Positions 1 through 7,479 are shown, counted from the first letter of the stretch. The stretch: DNA of 10,392 bases from a virus (IMGVR_UViG_2534681697_000028:1-10392), one strand, 5' to 3'. Notes: generated from the sequence alone by a model not told the origin. Numbers and translations are program-made.

Positions 1-300
1 TTACCGCCGTAAGTGCTCCGGCTTCCTCCACTGGTAAGTATTTTTCGCGCTCTCCCTCCGTTGTTGAGAACGGCGACGATATGCCAGCAACTCAAGGACT
101 CTTGTTCGTATGTTGCGCATATCCACGCCGTTAAGCTCAATACCGTCACGGCGCATCACCTCAGCCACCACACGCGCGTAATTTTCAGCGGTGACGCTGT
201 CCGGCTGCGTGGCCACCTGTTTGCCTGTTGCCTGACAGATTCCGGTAATACGGCGGATTACTTTCAGTAGTTCGGCGTCGGTCATGGTTATGGTTTCCAT
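1..300 (-). CDS. hypothetical protein (99-aa ORF); probably the C-terminal part of a ~125-aa HTH protein that starts at GTG 385 in another frame
   Basis: Complete ORF with stop at 1-3. Its own ATG at 300 has no Shine-Dalgarno, whereas GTG 385 (track ORF 185..385) has GAGGTG 4 nt upstream and encodes an HTH-like N-terminus (MATQTEVARHLSLTDRQLRRLQKLFP). The two frames meet at a G5 run (307-311); removing one G fuses them in frame. Confidence 0.5.
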   Translation of the reverse strand: METITMTDAELLKVIRRITGICQATGKQVATQPDSVTAENYARVVAEVMRRDGIELNGVDMRNIRTRVLELLAYRRRSQQRRESAKNTYQWRKPEHLRR

Positions 301-463
301 AGTGATGGGGGAACAATTTCTGTAATCTGCGAAGCTGGCGATCGGTCAGACTCAAATGCCTGGCAACTTCAGTCTGAGTAGCCACTGTTCACCTCGCCCA
401 AAAATCTCCCCTCATGCGTTTTAAACATGCATCTTGCGAACAACTTTATGAAACGCGGCATAT

Positions 464-560
464 ATGTCCGGTTTGAGTGTTCAATTTTTGCGCATGTCCG
501 GTTCGCAGAAAGCGCATTTCTATATTTTTCAAATGGTTAACCTTCAGAGAAACCGGACAT
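464..560 (-). promoter_or_regulatory. three copies of a 10-bp motif ATGTCCGGTT (464-473, 494-503 direct; 551-560 inverted) upstream of the gene starting at 385; candidate operator array
   Basis: Exact 10-mer repeated three times in about 100 bp between the capsid-operon terminator and the next gene start. The third copy sits inside the hairpin gaaacc-ggacat-ggtttc (548-565). An 8-bp palindrome ggttaacc lies at 535-542. Confidence 0.45.
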
Positions 561-641
561 GGTTTCCGAAAAATTTTCATAAATAGTGAAATTCTGCGCC
601 GCTCCCGCCCCGTGGCAGGCCACCCCACCGGAAGGACCCGC

Positions 642-670: not shown

Positions 671-1084
671 TCAGATGGTTTTCAGTATGCGATCGATTTC
701 GCCGTCATCACCCTGATATCTGCCATCGTATGCCATGCCAGGGCTTACGGCCTGCGGGCTGTGCATGTCCATAAAGTTTTCAAAGGCTGCGGTAAGCTCC
801 GGCGCAACCTTCGGGCGTTCCTGCTCTATGGTCATGTTCAGGATTTCCCGGGCATTATCGACGCTAATACATGGCACGTTTGCCATTGCACGTAACAGCG
901 GCTGATAGTCGTCAGATTCATGAAGCGCCATAATCGCATCAGTGCGCGGCTTGTCCTGCTCTTCCAGTTTGTTAAGTTGATATATAGCCTCGTAGGTTGA
1001 TAAACCTCTGTCCGCCATTGCCCGCGCTTCGGCTTTAAATTTACTCGCTAGCGGTAGCGCCATGATAGCTTCATTGATTGCCAT
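671..1084 (-). CDS. hypothetical protein, 137 aa, last gene of capsid operon
   Basis: ORF with SD AGGGGG 4 nt upstream of ATG 1084; starts 10 nt after the stop of the upstream gene; followed by the terminator. No family recognised by eye. Confidence 0.6.
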   Translation of the reverse strand: MAINEAIMALPLASKFKAEARAMADRGLSTYEAIYQLNKLEEQDKPRTDAIMALHESDDYQPLLRAMANVPCISVDNAREILNMTIEQERPKVAPELTAAFENFMDMHSPQAVSPGMAYDGRYQGDDGEIDRILKTI

Positions 1085-1096
1085 CGTTCCCCCTGC

Positions 1097-1387
1097 TTAT
1101 CGCACCAGTGGCTGAACGGATACGCCAGAACCCGCAAAAGCGGCGCATTTTTTCGCGTCGGTGTCGACGCTCTCGGGCCAGTTAACGGCGGCGATATTAA
1201 ATATCCCCGTCTTGTAACACTGTGCTGATTTCTGCTTTGACGTGTCCACGGGGTACGCCGTCAGATAAACAGCCTTGCCAGATTCCTGACCATCCCACGC
1301 CTTAAACTCGCCATTGTCCGCCAGCATCAGCGGAAAAATGTACCAGCGTCGTGGCAACCTGCTGTGTGCCTGCATATAACTCAACAT
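1097..1387 (-). CDS. hypothetical protein (96-aa ORF); likely true start at ATG 1400 in another frame (apparent frameshift at the A5 run 1334-1338)
   Basis: ATG 1387 has no SD. ATG 1400 lies 11 nt after the capsid gene stop, has a strong SD GGGAGA, and encodes MGTPYVELYAGTQQVATTLVHF before stopping after 32 aa. Removing one base of the A5 run joins it in frame to the 96-aa ORF. Confidence 0.5.
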   Translation of the reverse strand: MLSYMQAHSRLPRRWYIFPLMLADNGEFKAWDGQESGKAVYLTAYPVDTSKQKSAQCYKTGIFNIAAVNWPESVDTDAKKCAAFAGSGVSVQPLVR

Positions 1388-1411
1388 ATGGAGTGCCCAT
1401 AGAATCTCCCG

Positions 1412-2467
1412 TTAACCAATTTTCACAGTAACAAATTTGCGGATATCTGCCGGAACCGGCTGTGGTGCGCTGTGCGTCTGCACGTACTCAATCGCCGGAT
1501 CGCCGCTCTCAATCCAGTTTTTCGGGTAGTACATGTTTTGCGTTGCGCCCGTTCTTACCGCTTCCGGATCCATAATCGCGCCATAGGCCACCAGACCTTT
1601 ATTGCTGGTGTTGCCTAGGACAAGCAAATCAGGCTCAAGGAAATATTTTTCGGTGCCGTCGCTGTCGGTGTATTTGCCGGAATAGACGATAAGGGCCAGA
1701 TCACCCAGATAGCCTTTAAAGCTCACCACTTCGCCCAGGTTTTTACACGCCAGCTCTGCGGCGGATTCTGAACCACGGGAAAGATCGTACAGCTCGCGGA
1801 ATTTTTTAAAGCTACGTAAGGTGCGCCATACGTCAGCGCCCATAATCATGACGTTGGCGGGGCAGCTGGCCTGTTCGGCGTATAGCTCGATGTCATCTGT
1901 CGGATCATGCGTCTCTTTATTCTGCTCAGACCATTTTTTTCCTGGCCCCTGATGGACAATGCAGTTTGCCGGCATATTCCAGTCGATTTCATAGCGTTCT
2001 ATGCCTTCGCCTTCAATGATGTTTTTTCCGGTCGTGACCGCATTCACTGCCAGCCATTCCACACGCGCTTTAATGGCGTTTATCTGGCGGCGCATGTTGC
2101 CAGTAATGAGGCGCATACGTCGCCAGGTGGGGTCGTTAAGCAGTGCCGGATCTTCTCCAGCCATGCGCATGATGGTTTTTGATGGATCGATTTCGTGTTT
2201 GGGTTTCATGTAGCCAGGGCGGATAGTGCTTGTTTCGTACCCTTTATCACGCTGAACCTGGCTACCCACCACAGGCGAACAAAACGCCGACATGGTGACT
2301 TCTTCAATGTCCAGGGTATCCAGCATGACATCTTGTGTGTTGAAGGTTGCTACTTTCGGGAAAAACAGCGTGGTAAACAGCGGACTGAATTTAAATTCCG
2401 GGATATCCCCGCGATTCAGGTACGCGAAAAGCTGGTTAGTGTTAAGTGCCGTTGCTTTGTCTGCCAT
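1412..2467 (-). CDS. phage major capsid protein, lambda gpE family
   Basis: 351 aa, close to lambda gpE length (~341 aa as recalled), with recognisable gpE-like blocks: KFSPLF..FF, PGYMKPKHE, DPTDDIE, FRSFKKF, RGSESAAE, YKGYLGD..IVYSGKY, VLGNTS..GL.AYG, YPKNW..GDPA.EY. Start overlaps the upstream ORF stop (TAATG). Confidence 0.9.
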   Translation of the reverse strand: MADKATALNTNQLFAYLNRGDIPEFKFSPLFTTLFFPKVATFNTQDVMLDTLDIEEVTMSAFCSPVVGSQVQRDKGYETSTIRPGYMKPKHEIDPSKTIMRMAGEDPALLNDPTWRRMRLITGNMRRQINAIKARVEWLAVNAVTTGKNIIEGEGIERYEIDWNMPANCIVHQGPGKKWSEQNKETHDPTDDIELYAEQASCPANVMIMGADVWRTLRSFKKFRELYDLSRGSESAAELACKNLGEVVSFKGYLGDLALIVYSGKYTDSDGTEKYFLEPDLLVLGNTSNKGLVAYGAIMDPEAVRTGATQNMYYPKNWIESGDPAIEYVQTHSAPQPVPADIRKFVTVKIG

Positions 2468-2673
2468 TATTCACCCCCATGAGTCTGATTCATGCCAAGC
2501 GCCGCACGTAAATAGGCGCGTACCTGCCAGCCTGTTGACGGCTCAACCATCGCCAGCGGATCAAGTCCTGCCGCAATGCCCGCTTTTACGTTCTGCTGGT
2601 GGCGTTCCTTGAGCGCCTCCACGATATCGGGGCTTATGTAAACTGTCACCCCGCCTTTTTTCTCTTCTGTCAT
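2467..2673 (-). CDS. hypothetical small protein, 68 aa, first gene of capsid operon
   Basis: ATG 2673 with SD GAGGAA upstream; stop overlaps the capsid gene start (translational coupling). N-terminus GVTVYISPDIVEALKER has a strand-helix pattern; no firm family. Confidence 0.6.
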   Translation of the reverse strand: MTEEKKGGVTVYISPDIVEALKERHQQNVKAGIAAGLDPLAMVEPSTGWQVRAYLRAALGMNQTHGGE

Positions 2674-2700
2674 AGTCAGAAATTCCTCTTCGACTTAAAA

Positions 2701-2732
2701 AATTATAACTGGATGTACATCCAGTTATAATT
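2701..2732. promoter_or_regulatory. 32-bp perfect palindrome aattataactggatgtacatccagttataatt overlapping divergent -10-like hexamers; candidate operator of the capsid operon promoter
   Basis: Verified base by base as a perfect inverted repeat. TATAAT on the plus strand at 2732-2737 and on the minus strand at 2735..2730. Centre lies ~44 nt upstream of the start at 2673. Confidence 0.6.
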
Positions 2733-2910: not shown

Positions 2911-3280
2911 TCAGAACGGAATATCATCACCGTAGGGGTCATCGTCTCCCGCTGGTGGCTGATTACCCTGTGTGCCTGTGGTTTTGCGTCTGTTCCCGCT
3001 AGGGCGTGCCGCTCGGGCACTGATTACGCTGTCGGCAATAACCTGATAACCCTGCCGCGTTTCCCCGTTCTGTCAGCGTGGCAAAGTTTGCCGCTGCTGT
3101 GGTCATGAATGCGCTTATCAGGTCGGGATGTTCCTTCGCGTATCCTTCCCCCGCGTGGCGGTCTATCGTTCTGATTGCCACCTTTAAAGCGTGCTCTGTC
3201 ATGTCTAACGCGCGATATTTCGGTTCTGTTCTGTCTCTGCGTTTTTTGAGTGATTTATTAAATTTTCCTGAAGTGTGCAT
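2911..3280 (-). pseudogene. small protein with SSB-like C-terminal tail (Gly/Gln/Pro-rich linker ending DDDPYGDDIPF), apparently frameshifted near the C4 run 3063-3066
   Basis: 93-aa ORF (3280..2999) in one frame. A second frame with no start codon is open 3072..2914 and encodes ...RPSGNRRKTTGTQGNQPPAGDDDPYGDDIPF-stop, resembling the E. coli SSB tail (...DFDDDIPF). Removing one base of the run fuses the two. The N-terminal part does not look like an OB fold. Confidence 0.55.
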
Positions 3281-3327
3281 GTTTATTTTTACCCCCTCGT
3301 TTAAAAAGTTTTGAGTTGTGCCTCCCC

Positions 3328-3555
3328 TTGTCTACCTTATCTACCTTGCTGGCCCTCATGCCAGTAATGGCGCGGCTTTCAGCGGGGTAGAGTGCTTTTA
3401 TCCACTATCTACCCCGTGTCTACCTCCCTGTCTGATTCAGGTAAAATCAGGTAGAGAGGGTAGATAGTGGGTAGACAGTAAAAAAAAGCTGTCTACCTAA
3501 CTTAATGTACTGAATTAAATGTATTTTCCTTTACTCAGGTAGACAGGGTAGACAG
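3328..3555. repeat. iteron array, putative origin of replication (consensus GGTAGACAG / CTGTCTACC)
   Basis: At least 11 copies of the core TCTACC/GGTAGA in both orientations (e.g. 3331-3336, 3340-3345, 3408-3413, 3419-3424, 3492-3497; 3386-3391, 3450-3455, 3459-3464, 3470-3475, tandem 3538-3546 and 3547-3555) plus an AT-rich stretch at 3478-3530, immediately 3' of the primase gene. Confidence 0.75.
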
Positions 3556-3568
3556 CAATTACAAAAAA

Positions 3569-5323
3569 TTATAAAAACGCGTCGCACTCGTCTGTTGTTA
3601 TTGCGTTAGTCTGCGTTACCCCCTTAACTTTCCGCGTAATATATTCATGTCCGTAAACTTTTGCGGCAGGCTTCATAGCCTTGCCAAAGTCATTTACGTT
3701 TAGCGGTTTGCTCCTGCCTGCGTATGCCATAAACGCCAGATAGACGCGGTAAAGGCTGTTCCTGGTCGTGTACTTCACTGAATCACCACCGCCACCCATC
3801 ATCAGGCCGCGCGCTTCCTCCAGAAAATTCAGGAACTGGCAAAACTCAATAACCGGATCCGTCTGTTGCTTTATTGCCAGTGCTTCATCACCGTCATGCT
3901 GTTCCAGTAGTAAAGCCCGTGCCTTCTCAGGGTCGGTAAAGTTCGCCAGCAATCGGCGGATAATAACGGGGATTTCAGCCGCAATCTTTTCCGGTAGCTC
4001 CCTGTCTTTTTCGGCCTCACTGACGATATTGTCGAAACGGAAAATCACGCGACGACGTGCCACACCTCCGGCCCGTTCGGTGAATATCATCGGGTTGTTG
4101 TCGGTCGCCAGCACCACCGCCCTGATTACCGCCGTGAAACGCTTTTCATATTTCGGGTTAATTTCCACGGGGTCGCCGCCCGTGATTTTCTTGATGCCCG
4201 TTCCTTCGCCTGTATATTTCGGCTGGTCAGCCAGGACGATAAGACGACTCCCGACAACCTGCGCACGTCCACCAGCATCATCAAGCGATGTCATTTCAGC
4301 GCTTACCGTGTTCTGTTTCCCTGCCAGAAGGCTGGCTATGTGTGTGAATGTACTTTTACCGCTCCCGCCGTCTCCGGTGGCCTCAATAAACATCTGCCAG
4401 TCGTACCGGTTCGCCATAATCATGTAAAGCGCGGCACATATGCGCATCATCTTGCGCGGGTCTTTTCCGGCTGCGTGATCAAGCCATTTATGAAAGTTTG
4501 GCGCGTTGTCGCGGATATTCTCCCCTGGTGCTGGTGGCGTGTACTCAATGCCGTTGTGCGTGGTGATCCAGTTCTCCGGCGTGTGCGGGGAAAATTCCCC
4601 CGTTTTCAGGTTAAGCACACCATTAGTGAACGGTAGCAAATCACTGGACGGCTCGCCCATCGGGTCAGCAATAACTTTTAACGCTTCAACGGCGTTATTA
4701 ATTGCCCGCTTGCTGAATGTGGCCCCGTGTTCTGAATAAACCGCCACCATTTCGCGGCTCAGTTCCATTGTGCTGACCGGACACCATATCCCGCCGCGCC
4801 ATACGTGAACGATTTCACTTTCCGGATGCACACAAACGCCATCAAATCGACCAGCAAGCATCTGTGCGCGCTCACTGTCTGCCATCTGCGAAAGTTGCGC
4901 CTTTTGCTTTACCGGAAGCTCAATGACCAGACCATCAGAAAGATTCTGGCGTTCACGGGCCAGATATTCGCGCCAGTTCTGCACCTCCTGGCCGTGCATA
5001 CCCTCAAGATAAAAATTTGCATCCTGTACACCTGCCGCCGCCAGCTTCTGACCAATCGCCTTGATCATTACAGGCTCAAGATGTCCGGCTCTGTATATGC
5101 GTGCTGATTTTCTGCCATCCGGCACAATTTGCAGATTATCCAGTTCGGATAGCTGCTGCTCTCCAAGCCACACAGGAGGCTCATTATCTCCGGCTGTACG
5201 CGCGTCATGTTCCTGCCACTGTTTCGCGTGTGCCCAGGCATCACTACCCGCAAAGATAATTACCTCTGTGTCTTTGTGTTTTATTCCGCGTGGCTGTTTT
5301 TTTACGTTCGGTGCCAGTTTCAT
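3569..5323 (-). CDS. P4-family primase/helicase (D5-like SF3 NTPase) replication protein
   Basis: 584-aa ORF with Walker A GDGGSGKST and downstream VLADQP / VLATDNNP motifs typical of phage/plasmid primase-helicases. SD AGGGG; start overlaps the upstream ORF stop (ATGA). Sits beside the iteron origin. Confidence 0.88.
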   Translation of the reverse strand: MKLAPNVKKQPRGIKHKDTEVIIFAGSDAWAHAKQWQEHDARTAGDNEPPVWLGEQQLSELDNLQIVPDGRKSARIYRAGHLEPVMIKAIGQKLAAAGVQDANFYLEGMHGQEVQNWREYLARERQNLSDGLVIELPVKQKAQLSQMADSERAQMLAGRFDGVCVHPESEIVHVWRGGIWCPVSTMELSREMVAVYSEHGATFSKRAINNAVEALKVIADPMGEPSSDLLPFTNGVLNLKTGEFSPHTPENWITTHNGIEYTPPAPGENIRDNAPNFHKWLDHAAGKDPRKMMRICAALYMIMANRYDWQMFIEATGDGGSGKSTFTHIASLLAGKQNTVSAEMTSLDDAGGRAQVVGSRLIVLADQPKYTGEGTGIKKITGGDPVEINPKYEKRFTAVIRAVVLATDNNPMIFTERAGGVARRRVIFRFDNIVSEAEKDRELPEKIAAEIPVIIRRLLANFTDPEKARALLLEQHDGDEALAIKQQTDPVIEFCQFLNFLEEARGLMMGGGGDSVKYTTRNSLYRVYLAFMAYAGRSKPLNVNDFGKAMKPAAKVYGHEYITRKVKGVTQTNAITTDECDAFL

Positions 5324-5858: not shown

Positions 5859-5894
5859 AACCCCGTTACTTTATTCGTACCCCTTATAATGGGG

Positions 5895-7440
5895 TGTTAG
5901 CCAGCCAGACCCGGCATGATTACTGCCCCCAGTCGTCCATGATCCGGGGGGTGATGTCACCGGGTCTGGTGGGGCGCTGGTAACCGCTAATAGGGGTCAG
6001 GTCAGGCACTTTTGCCGGGACCGTCTGTAACGTGGATGCCGGTACCTGCTCCCCGTGGTTATCTGGTTAACCCATATACAAGGGAGACAGAATGACCGAA
6101 TCCAGCGATTACGAATCCGTCCAGGTCTTTATCGGCGTTGATGTCGGTAAAGATACGCATCACGCTGTTGCCATTAATCGTTCAGGTAAACGCCTGTTCG
6201 ATAAAGCATTACCCAACGACGAAAACAAACTCAGGTCGCTAATATCTGACCTGAAACAACATGGTCAGATACTGCTGGTTGTTGATCAGCCAGCTACCAT
6301 CGGTGCGTTACCTGTCGCCGTTGCCCGCTCAGAAGGAGTCCTTGTCGGATACCTCCCTGGACTGGCCATGCGCCGCATAGCCGACTTACACGCCGGTGAA
6401 GCTAAAACTGATGCTCGTGACGCTGCCATCATTGCCGAAGCTGCCCGTACCCTGCCTCACGCGCTACGCACGCTGAAACTGGCTGACGAGCAAATCGCCG
6501 AACTCTCCATGCTCTGCGGCTTCGATGATGATCTTGCCGCACAGAAACGCAGGCCAGCAACCGTATCCGCGGCCTTCTGACCCAGATACATCCGGCACTG
6601 GAGCGCGTTCTCGGTCCGAGACTTGAGCACCCGGCGGTACTCGATCTTCTCCAGCGATATCCCTCACCAGAAAAACTCGCTTCGCTGGGTGAGAAGAAGC
6701 TGGCAGCCCAGCTCTGCAAACTTGCGCCTCGTCTGGGTAAACGCCTTGCAGCAGACATAGCTCAGGCACTGGCCGAACAAACCGTCGTCGTTCCCGGCAC
6801 GAATGCCGCTGCCGTAGTACTGCCACGTCTGGCACTCCAGCTCATCACGCTGCGTAAGCAAAGAGACGAGGTGGCGCTTGAGGTAGAACAGCGAGTTCTT
6901 GCTCACCCTCTTTACCCGGTCCTGACCAGTATGCCCGGAGTCGGTGTCAGGAGCGCAGCCAGACTCCTCACCGAGGTCGCCTGCCGCGCCTTCGCCTCTG
7001 CCGTACATCTCGCTGCTTATGCTGGCCTTGCGCCGGTAACTCGGCGATCCGGCTCGTCAATACGCGGTGAGCATCCCCCGCGACGGGGTAATAAAGCTCT
7101 CAAACGGGCGTTGTTCCTGTCGGCCTTCGCCGCGCTCAGGGATCCGCTCTCCAGGGCTTACTACACCCGCAAAATGAGTCAGGGAAAACGACACAATCAG
7201 GCGCTTATCGCCCTGGCGAGACGACGCTGCGACGTTCTGTTCGCCATGATGCGCGACGGGACTTTTTATACCCCGCAGGGGTCATAACATGCTTGACAAC
7301 TTAATAGGGGCACGTTACGCCCCGCCATAATGCGGGTATGGGTAGGTTTACGGACACAAAAAAACCGCATATCGGAATGTAAGCGGCTGTCCGCTTTGCT
7401 ATTCAGGCTGTCAAACCCGGTCGCCATGTGGGCGACGGGG
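5895..7440 (+). mobile_element. IS110-family insertion sequence (boundaries approximate)
   Basis: Contains the IS110-type transposase reading frame 6092..7287 with non-coding flanks. The family lacks terminal inverted repeats, so the ends cannot be fixed by eye. Confidence 0.7.
6092..7287 (+). pseudogene. IS110-family transposase (DEDD-type recombinase), split by an apparent 1-nt deletion in the A-run 6545-6547
   Basis: N-terminal ORF 6092..6580 carries the DEDD/RuvC-like start FIGVDVGKDTHHAVAI. The conserved continuation ...TQASNRIRGLLTQIHPALERVLGP... and the C-terminal MPGVGVRSAARLL...AAYAGLAPVTRRSGSS block are in a frame open from 6532 to 7287. SD AGGGAG precedes ATG 6092. Confidence 0.85.
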
Positions 7441-7479
7441 GAAGAATACAGCCCCACGGTAATTTTTTGCAAGTTGTTT

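Follow-up and report, generated by a model that had tools for sequence, protein, structure and literature searches.

Gram-negative phage-inducible chromosomal islands (PICIs) frequently carry a gene for a phage-type capsid protein; this gene occurs in 21 of 29 reference islands and is dispensable (PMC10111431). In the prototype, EcCICFT073 of Escherichia coli CFT073, helper-dependent excision, replication and high-frequency transfer have been shown (PMC6092414); its genes c1498, c1499, c1500 and c1501 encode proteins of 68, 351, 111 and 137 aa, respectively (supplement of PMC6092414), and c1503 encodes RppA (PMC6092414, PMC6739421). In this study, we analyzed a stretch of viral DNA of 10,392 nt (IMGVR_UViG_2534681697_000028:1-10392; the whole of this stretch is referred to below as the window), which contains four co-directional open reading frames (ORFs) on the minus strand, encoding, in this order, a 68-aa protein, a gpE-family major capsid protein, a gpD-family head decoration protein and a 137-aa protein. 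Orthologous to c1498-c1501 of CFT073, these genes almost certainly constitute the capsid module of a Gram-negative PICI of the EcCICFT073 type, which exploits lambdoid phages with cos packaging as a satellite. The finding is real but already known, as is the hypothesis, put forward in a first-pass annotation of the window, that the operon is a Ccm-like module redirecting capsid size: this idea was raised and tested by Fillol-Salom et al. (2018; PMC6092414), and capsid modification by PICI capsid genes has been a matter of speculation in later literature, part of which points out the puzzle that these genes pose.

Several described systems offer points of comparison: (i) SaPIbov5, a cos-packaged Staphylococcus aureus pathogenicity island (SaPI), in which Ccm, a diverged paralog of the HK97-fold coat protein of the helper, builds the pentamers of small T=4 capsids by itself and causes interference (Carpena 2016; Hawkins 2021, PMC8569155); (ii) SaPI1, whose CpmB protein (Dearborn 2017, cited in PMC6092414) is scaffold-like and, through a C-terminal coat-binding tail common to both, competes with the helper scaffold; (iii) capsid-forming PICIs (cf-PICIs) such as EcCIEDL933, which encode a full HK97-type head and packaging set (portal, protease, connectors, HNH, TerS and TerL) and produce their own small capsids (bioRxiv 10.1101/2022.09.08.507074); (iv) helper-embedded PICIs (11capE; PMC10111431), which carry the same capsid and decoration gene family; and (v) the head modules of phage 21, Gifsy-1 and lambda, which contain homologous capsid, decoration and scaffold genes.

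Identity and organization of the capsid module

Over the replication and capsid modules, the window shares ~90-92% nucleotide sequence identity (megablast) with CFT073 and many other strains, the CFT073 match being the island located between phoQ and roxA. Since the gene numbers and product lengths agree with the supplement of PMC6092414, the operon was identified as c1498-c1501. The genes, their order, the promoter, the palindrome and the terminator are the same as in EcCICFT073, with ~88% DNA identity across the operon region and 88-93% identity of the proteins. The window differs from the prototype in that (i) its decoration gene is frameshifted, (ii) rppA (c1503) is absent, (iii) the cos region is inverted, (iv) the integrase is unrelated (23% identity), (v) ssb is deleted, (vi) alpA contains a stop codon and (vii) ISEc20 is inserted (Table 1).

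The operon, described as lone in the first-pass annotation, is in fact part of a PICI with an integrase, alpA, a primase, an iteron origin and a cos site. The suggestion that it belongs to a satellite requiring a lambdoid helper was correct, as indicated by the EcCICFT073-type island and by the lambda-like cos site next to the operon. The operon also has its own terminator (GGCCGGAGAAATCCGGC followed by seven T residues), identical in CFT073 and strain 2014C-4135, and a perfect palindrome (ATAACTGGATGTACATCCAGTTAT) directly after the TATAAT hexamer of its promoter, as had been proposed. The two tandem terminators upstream, conserved in the same two strains, end the preceding replication module and insulate the capsid operon. 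The four genes would therefore be read as one insulated transcription unit, closed by its own terminator and followed by the cos site of the island.

The head-module genes said to be missing from the window are for the most part truly absent: no homolog of Nu1, A, W, B, the C protease, FI, FII, Z or U of lambda or phage 21 was found in it by tblastn, and it contains no S49 protease. The supposed absence of a scaffold did not hold, as the 137-aa protein is a Nu3 homolog (see below). Similarly, of the three small proteins originally listed, the 68-aa and 137-aa ORFs are real, whereas the third ("~100-aa"; 96 aa, 1097-1387) is an artefact of a 32-nt frameshifting deletion in the decoration gene. 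Compared with the phage head module, the operon lacks the portal, protease, W, FI, FII and terminase genes, has the order E-D-Nu3' instead of Nu3-D-E, contains the additional 68-aa gene and is preceded by a predicted LexA-type promoter rather than a phage late promoter. The helper-embedded lineages lack the 68-aa and 137-aa genes and have a 127-aa AlpA-like gene after the decoration gene. With the cf-PICIs the island shares the same kind of int-alpA-rep backbone and a satellite-encoded coat protein; however, the cf-PICI set (portal, maturation protease, connectors and large terminase) gave no tblastn or Pfam match in the window or in the full-length loci L001, L002 and L085, and PICI capsids are separated from cf-PICI capsids in published trees (PMC10085698).

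Table 1. Features of the window (10,392 nt), with positions counted from its first nucleotide
Feature	Position	Strand	Evidence or remarks
Lambda-type cos site	455-615	minus	cosN-like GGGCGGGAGCGG (599-610), motif TTCACTATTTATGAAAATTTTTCGG, three AACCGGACAT
Capsid module, whole	642-2758	minus	~88-92% DNA identity to E. coli CFT073 c1498-c1501
Intrinsic terminator of the operon	642-665	minus	GGCCGGAGAAATCCGGC + T7; starts 5 nt past the stop codon of the 137-aa gene
137-aa shortened Nu3-type scaffold homolog (c1501 homolog)	671-1084	minus	blastp, PHROG, hhalign, hmmsearch
gpD-family head decoration gene (c1500 homolog), pseudogene here	1097-1400	minus	PF02924, E 9e-15 on 3' part
Major capsid protein, gpE family (c1499 homolog), full length and intact	1412-2467	minus	PF03864, E 1.5e-48
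68-aa protein (c1498 homolog), phrog_3255	2467-2673	minus	ORF call and PHROG
LexA-box-like palindrome AACTGGATGTACATCCAGTT, CTG-N10-CAG	2707-2726		3 nt past the -10 hexamer; core of a 24-32 nt palindrome
-10 hexamer (TATAAT) of the capsid operon promoter	2730-2735	minus	Invariant in seven E. coli alleles and the Salmonella lineage
Upstream promoter element	2742-2778	minus	TTGCAAC (2772-2778) and inverted repeat ATTGCGCAAAATGCAAC (2742-2758)
Two tandem intrinsic terminators	~2881-2903 and ~2831-2874 (2831-2903)	minus	Sequence reading; one also found by terminator scan
ssb remnant	2911-3280	minus	Only the acidic C-terminal tail left (...GDDDPYGDDIPF*)
Iteron origin	3324-3558	minus	At least 12 GGTAGAYA repeats
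Primase/replicase	3569-5323	minus	D5_N, DUF5906, Pox_D5; with the origin, within 3281-5323
ISEc20 (IS110 family)	5860-7313		99.7% identity to copies in E. coli; insertion lies between the 77-aa gene and the icd-like region
c4 a1/b1 target	7400-7449	minus	Rfam, above gathering score
C4 antisense RNA	7723-7810	minus	Rfam, above gathering score
isrK	7835-7911	minus	Rfam, above gathering score
Integrase, 83-aa ORF and alpA context	8811-10392	minus	Profile matches
alpA homolog	8811-9014	minus	75% identical to AlpA of L085; in-frame stop at ~8982-8984 (~codon 11)
Tyrosine integrase, cut by the window end	9490-10392	minus	PF00589 and PF22022; at one end, co-directional with the island

Proteins encoded by the module

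The capsid protein (351 aa) covers positions 14-328 of the 329-position PF03864 profile, matches phrog_29 (E 2e-104) and can be aligned over its full length with gpE of lambda (43% identity) and gp7 of phage 21 (45%), which confirms its original description as a full-length gpE-family protein. Among solved structures it matches PDB 3BQW (E 2e-217), the crystal structure of the c1499 capsid protein itself, and lambda 7VI9 (E 1.5e-82). The closest phage capsid is that of Gifsy-1 (46.5% identity), no higher value being found in a collection of 50,697 phage records. One sequence encountered in the searches (P0029; 463 aa), present on a single short contig, is a fusion of a PICI-type capsid protein (PF03864) with a decoration protein (PF02924), which may be natural or a sequencing artefact.

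The decoration gene still gives a PF02924 match, yet its reading frame is not intact in the window. The true start codon is the ATG at 1400, and the frame is lost after residue 27 by a deletion of 32 nt between direct repeats (CCGCTGATGCTGGCG), whose junction was placed within ~1319-1335 by DNA alignment with two intact alleles; in tblastn the match is split across two frames. The gene is intact (109-111 aa) in all seven relatives fetched. The top E. coli matches to the operon are all 32 nt longer than the window, and the lesion is therefore private to this copy.

The 137-aa protein was compared with phage proteins by several methods: (i) blastp matches to phage 21 Nu3 (39% identity over 70 aa, E 2e-9) and to the C-terminus of Gifsy-1 gpC (E 9e-9); (ii) a match to the C-terminus of phrog_53, the head-protease family (E 1e-9); (iii) an hhalign comparison of its family with the Nu3 family (probability 97%, E 7e-11); and (iv) an hmmsearch match of its profile to a 195-aa Nu3-type protein (E 1e-8). 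When 1.84 billion representatives were searched exhaustively with its profile, phage-21-type Nu3 scaffolds were the only relatives recovered outside PICIs. When phage 21 Nu3 was searched against the window by tblastn, the match was not recovered at E <= 0.01. These sequence comparisons identify the protein as a homolog of the Nu3 scaffold of the phage-21/Gifsy type, corresponding to its C-terminal part, and a scaffold-like gene is present in the operon; the alignments suggest that two of the three Nu3 repeat modules are kept, together with the C-terminal FExFMxxHSPxAV tail. The gene is free-standing, downstream of the decoration gene, and is not nested in a head protease gene. Its AlphaFold2 model, built on a shallow alignment, is all-alpha with a disordered tail (predicted local distance difference test score, pLDDT, 72), which is compatible with an internal scaffold but not diagnostic. 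In some E. coli islands, internally deleted versions of 93 aa (P0086, P0088 and P0090) occur, which lack the distal part of the first repeat and the start of the second.

The NCBI name of the 137-aa protein, "phage head-tail connector protein", was rejected, as no sequence, hidden Markov model (HMM) or fold match supports it. The related possibility that the small proteins are ordinary FI/FII-type joining proteins fails for the same reason: the small ORFs showed no blastp match to W, FI or FII of lambda or phage 21, no Pfam or NCBIfam joining-protein match and no Foldseek match to PDB connectors. The Nu3-type identity of the c1501 family is a modest new point.

The stop codon of the 68-aa gene overlaps the start codon of the capsid gene (ATGA), which suggests translational coupling of the two. 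The AlphaFold2 model of the 68-aa protein consists of a beta-hairpin and two helices (pLDDT 78), and neither sequence nor fold searches (Foldseek included) returned a match in PDB or BFVD. Two candidate assignments, a ribbon-helix-helix regulator and a homolog of gpW (which in lambda likewise has 68 aa), were rejected, there being no sequence similarity and no Foldseek match in these databases.

Promoter and predicted regulation

The palindrome following the -10 hexamer resembles a LexA box. It was scored with an approximate heterology-index matrix, for which 23 LexA boxes of E. coli (Lewis 1994; Fernandez de Henestrosa 2000) were used. The index of the site is 5.1, within the range of the training boxes (2.1-11.6), and becomes 5.4 when CTGGAT-type training sites are removed; when the window was shuffled 200 times, the index of the best site had a median of 14.7, with 11.6 as the 5th percentile. 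The pattern CTGK-N8-MCAG occurs four times, compared with 0.35 occurrences expected. Six other PICIs of E. coli have a box at this position (5.1-7.9 over the seven alleles, including the window), as is the case in a Salmonella island (L091; 7.5), where the flanks have diverged. The palindrome core shares its half-sites with the E. coli ruvAB LexA box.

Read in this way, a sigma-70-type promoter would be overlapped at +1 by a LexA-type operator, and the operon would be silent in the lysogen until the SOS response, which also induces the resident lambdoid helper, switches it on. From the predicted operator, we consider SOS gating of the capsid operon probable. It would parallel the control of SaPI operon I by LexA (Ubeda 2007, as cited in PMC6092414), although here the control is predicted from sequence. 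No mention of LexA control of the capsid operon was found in the PICI literature searched, and the predicted operator is a second, modest new point.

A somewhat unlikely alternative, confined to the question of regulation, would make the palindrome, instead of a LexA operator, the site of a dimeric regulator of the satellite or helper, or a hairpin acting as a terminator or attenuator on read-through transcripts. The symmetry does extend beyond the 20-nt core in both the window and CFT073, with paired changes in the outer arms (TTATAA...TTATAA vs. TCATAA...TTATGA), the hairpin is followed by a T-run and receives a terminator-like score in the scan, and induction of the prototype depends on the helper via AlpA, not on SOS (PMC6092414). 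However, only the CTGGATG-N-CATCCAG core is kept in L002, L086-L088 and the Salmonella island, the stem has just three G-C pairs out of 14, and the indices of 5.1-7.9, including the value obtained without CTGGAT-type sites, lie within the range of bona fide boxes.

The inverted repeat of the upstream element (ATTGCGCAAAATGCAAC) overlaps a weak -35 sequence (TTGCGC). The ATTGCA-N5-TGCAAT repeat and TTGCAAC have a wider distribution than the LexA-like box, being kept in three PICI lineages that have diverged, the counterparts of the repeat being ATTGCAAAAAATGCAAT in L089 and L090 and GTTGCAAAAAATGCAAT in L091. This conservation suggests a candidate operator for a further regulator.

A second LexA-like box (TACTGGTTTTCTGTACAGCT; 9472-9491, index 8.8) overlaps the integrase stop codon and lies upstream of a conserved ORF of 76-83 aa that precedes alpA. 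Similar boxes occur at the same place in other islands (L085:17202, L001:14285 and L089:2223). The site hints at an SOS input into the regulatory region; alpA of the prototype has been reported to be SOS-independent.

Distribution, selection and gene order

The same four-gene operon was found, by database search, in 597 of 5426 complete E. coli genomes (~11%), and it is intact in every other allele examined. The ratios of non-synonymous to synonymous substitution rates (dN/dS; pairwise Nei-Gojobori, seven alleles, dS ~0.1-0.4) are 0.15 for the capsid, 0.19 for the decoration, 0.27 for the 68-aa and 0.28 for the 137-aa gene, compared with 0.09 for the primase. All four genes are retained in a lineage with a 62%-identical capsid protein and another replicase family (AAA_25 vs. 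D5_N), and they are kept whether rpp, terS or neither lies downstream. The capsid and decoration genes are adjacent in all PICI lineages examined, including those of Salmonella, Kluyvera, Superficieibacter, Cedecea and Kosakonia. The Salmonella and Kluyvera-type lineages have no 137-aa gene.

The order Nu1-A-W-B-C/Nu3-D-E-FI-FII was observed in all of the ~50 phage and prophage head modules scanned, whereas the satellites have (68 aa)-E-D-(Nu3'). Because of the occurrence in 597 genomes, the purifying selection and the E-D-Nu3' order as opposed to Nu3-D-E, the module is not the stump of a recent head-module deletion, a possibility allowed for in the first-pass annotation, but an old, maintained and rearranged satellite lineage. 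The permuted gene order and the selection figures are further modest new points.

The same data bear on the proposal that the operon is functionless cargo, left over from a phage head module or from an ancestor that formed capsids and having no present role. This would agree with the lack of a phenotype found in the prototype, with the decoration frameshift and several other lesions in the window copy, and with the loss of the 137-aa gene in some lineages and its 93-aa internally deleted variants in others. The low dN/dS values of all four genes, the intact state of the other alleles, the wide occurrence among complete genomes and reference PICIs (PMC10111431), the promoter architecture kept across lineages and an order that is rearranged, not merely truncated, all speak against it, and we consider it highly improbable.

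Relatives of the module were collected by an alignment-based contig scan, in which most matches were to genuine lambdoid prophages or to contaminating lambda DNA; a scan of genome contigs with a single capsid sequence as the query gave no matches. In Cedecea sp. S5-13 (L008) and Kosakonia sp. S29 (L047), capsid-decoration PICIs interrupt gene E (major capsid protein) of a lambdoid prophage, in the order protease and decoration gene, int...PICI..., 3' part of E, FI/FII; these two add to the helper-embedded PICIs, from hosts other than E. coli. A number of short loci (L019-L035 and others) encode head proteins 100% identical to those of lambda in unrelated GTDB assemblies, including Bradyrhizobium, Paenibacillus, Kitasatospora, Chromatium and an Akkermansia metagenome-assembled genome; these are almost certainly lambda DNA contamination from sequencing controls.

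Possible role of the module

The natural helper of the prototype is the CFT073 icd prophage (PMC10111431). Its head and packaging proteins (L092:11900-19870) are 99.5-100% identical to those of phage 21 (Nu1, W, B, C/Nu3, D, E, FI and FII), and its tail proteins Z and U are 96-99% identical to those of lambda. The capsid, decoration and 137-aa proteins of the satellite show 45, 43, and 39% identity, respectively, to the phage-21-type head proteins, i.e., they are about equally distant from them. The operon would supply a cognate shell set, composed of a coat, a cementing protein and an internal scaffold, which would descend from a phage-21/Gifsy-like head module. These proteins would join the portal, protease, terminase and tail of the helper in full-size capsids, adding to or backing up the helper shell supply for satellite packaging. 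An SOS-switched, helper-redundant shell kit is the role that we tentatively put forward, rating its chances as somewhat below even. We propose that no phenotype has been found because this role is redundant with the helper genes in laboratory conditions.

Published experiments on the prototype, whose operon is ~90% identical, bear directly on the alternatives. With lambda, all DNA packaged in the presence of EcCICFT073 was phage-sized, and no "PICI monomer" band appeared with the resident helper (PMC6092414). Deletion of c1499 or c1500 left both lambda interference and transfer unchanged (3.8e3 and 8.7e3, respectively, vs. 8e3 transductants/ml), and c1499 could be replaced by cat without loss (PMC6092414). 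When the genes were expressed singly, only c1503 (RppA) interfered with lambda (PMC6739421).

Capsid-size redirection, in which a Ccm-like coat and/or a CpmB-like shortened scaffold would force small capsids that exclude the helper genome, draws on several features of the locus. The capsid paralog sits on a cos-type satellite, as in Ccm-type redirectors, and is just 45% identical to that of the helper; the 137-aa protein keeps the Nu3 C-terminal tail minus one of the three repeats (137 vs. 200 aa); the island has ~11 kb compared with ~43-48 kb of helper genomes; and PmCI172, a Gram-negative PICI with a capsid homolog, makes small capsids (PMC6092414). The likeness to Ccm is nevertheless limited, as the coat gene comes here with cognate decoration and scaffold genes and the prototype shows no size change, interference or transfer phenotype, and the likeness to CpmB is by analogy only, the 137-aa protein being derived from Nu3, not from the 80alpha scaffold, with no small capsids seen. 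The phage-sized DNA, the missing monomer band, the unaltered interference and transfer of the deletion mutants (PMC6092414) and the failure of any singly expressed operon gene to cut lambda plaques (PMC6739421) all oppose this explanation. Two objections to these negative results were considered. The first, that they were compromised by the c1501::tetA marker, was rejected: the primers put tetA directly after the c1501 stop codon, leaving the ORFs of the operon intact. The second, that they are limited to lambda-type heads, is weakened, since the helper with a phage 21 head gave neither a transfer defect nor a monomer band. Because both loopholes close, size redirection, which the experiments do not support, is rated as quite improbable.

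A different proposal is anti-phage interference, in which the shell proteins would co-assemble with or titrate the head proteins of competing lambdoid phages beyond lambda, phi80 and HK97, so that host and island would profit from the poisoned capsid assembly. PICIs commonly carry interference or defence functions, and the over-expression tests covered single genes and three phages (PMC6739421); purifying selection without a transfer phenotype would also fit a role against particular phages. On the other hand, a LexA-type switch would be blind to lytic or non-SOS-inducing phage infection, RppA fully explains the lambda interference (PMC6739421), and no defence domain of the padloc type was seen, although none was specifically searched for; we consider this proposal improbable.

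For the explanation as a whole, comprising the identity of the module, SOS gating, the shell kit and a decaying copy, we see about an even chance. The following points weigh against it: (i) the structural contribution is unproven, as the c1499 and c1500 deletions changed neither transfer nor lambda interference; (ii) a portal-less kit would need the helper portal and protease to recognize a coat protein 45% identical to that of the helper; (iii) the scaffold is not a universal part of the kit, because the 137-aa gene is missing in the lineages of Salmonella and of the Kluyvera type; (iv) the 68-aa protein is without an assigned role; (v) the LexA operator is predicted with an approximate weight matrix; (vi) the LexA-like box is absent from the lineage with the 62%-identical capsid (L089 and L090) and from the Kluyvera-type lineage; and (vii) the palindrome and T-run could act as a weak terminator.

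Other features of the island and condition of this copy

The cos site directly follows the operon terminator and shares 80% identity with the cos region of CFT073, relative to which it is inverted; its three AACCGGACAT elements, one of them inverted, form a cosB-like array. Neither rpp nor terS is present after cos (300-640, minus strand), where only a 28-codon helix-turn-helix-like remnant is found, which has a GTG start (MATQTEVARHLSLTDRQLRRLQKL...) and continues into the last gene in another frame. Since this arrangement, a cos site without rpp or terS, is also that of FDAARGOS_943 (L085), the closest relative, a cos-only sub-lineage exists. In strain 2014C-4135 (L002:6001-7420), two lambda-identical cosN sequences, inverted, flank a Nu1-like terS; two cos sites have been reported for EcCICFT073 (PMC6739421).

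Upstream of the capsid operon, a deletion of ~300 nt relative to CFT073 fuses a small upstream ORF to the ssb tail, producing a 93-aa ORF (2999-3280). The ISEc20 transposase is encoded here by two ORFs in different frames; the near-identity of this element to E. coli copies assigns the window to E. coli or Shigella. The region 7400-7911, beside the icd-like gene, is a P1/P7/P4-style antisense immunity region within the regulatory region of the PICI.

The prototype cannot be induced without AlpA (PMC6092414), and because of the nonsense codon in alpA the island is probably not inducible. Because the decoration gene is frameshifted as well, this copy is probably decaying, immobile and inert, the loss of mobility being predicted from its lesions; the capsid, 68-aa and 137-aa ORFs are still intact.

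Significance

The window does not represent a new kind of element. The role of the capsid genes in most enterobacterial PICIs is a small but genuine question, as these genes are widespread and conserved, yet no phenotype has been found in the model island. Our analysis sharpens this question, without answering what the genes do, in three respects: (i) the 137-aa protein appears to be a truncated Nu3-type scaffold, not a connector, which would give the island a complete cognate shell set; (ii) from a strong and conserved LexA-type box, control by SOS is predicted, not by AlpA or the helper; and (iii) the natural helper of the prototype has a phage 21 head, the closest relative of the satellite genes. 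A bolder reading, which we consider unlikely, is that of an SOS-triggered kit building satellite-specific shells on stolen helper portals, in which chimeric particles would carry the helper portal, terminase and tail and the shortened scaffold would act as a CpmB-like competitor. If this were true, the effect, whether on particle composition, perhaps on size, or on immunity to capsid-targeting defences, would appear only with certain natural helpers or conditions, and the module would be a functional intermediate between the classical and the capsid-forming PICIs.

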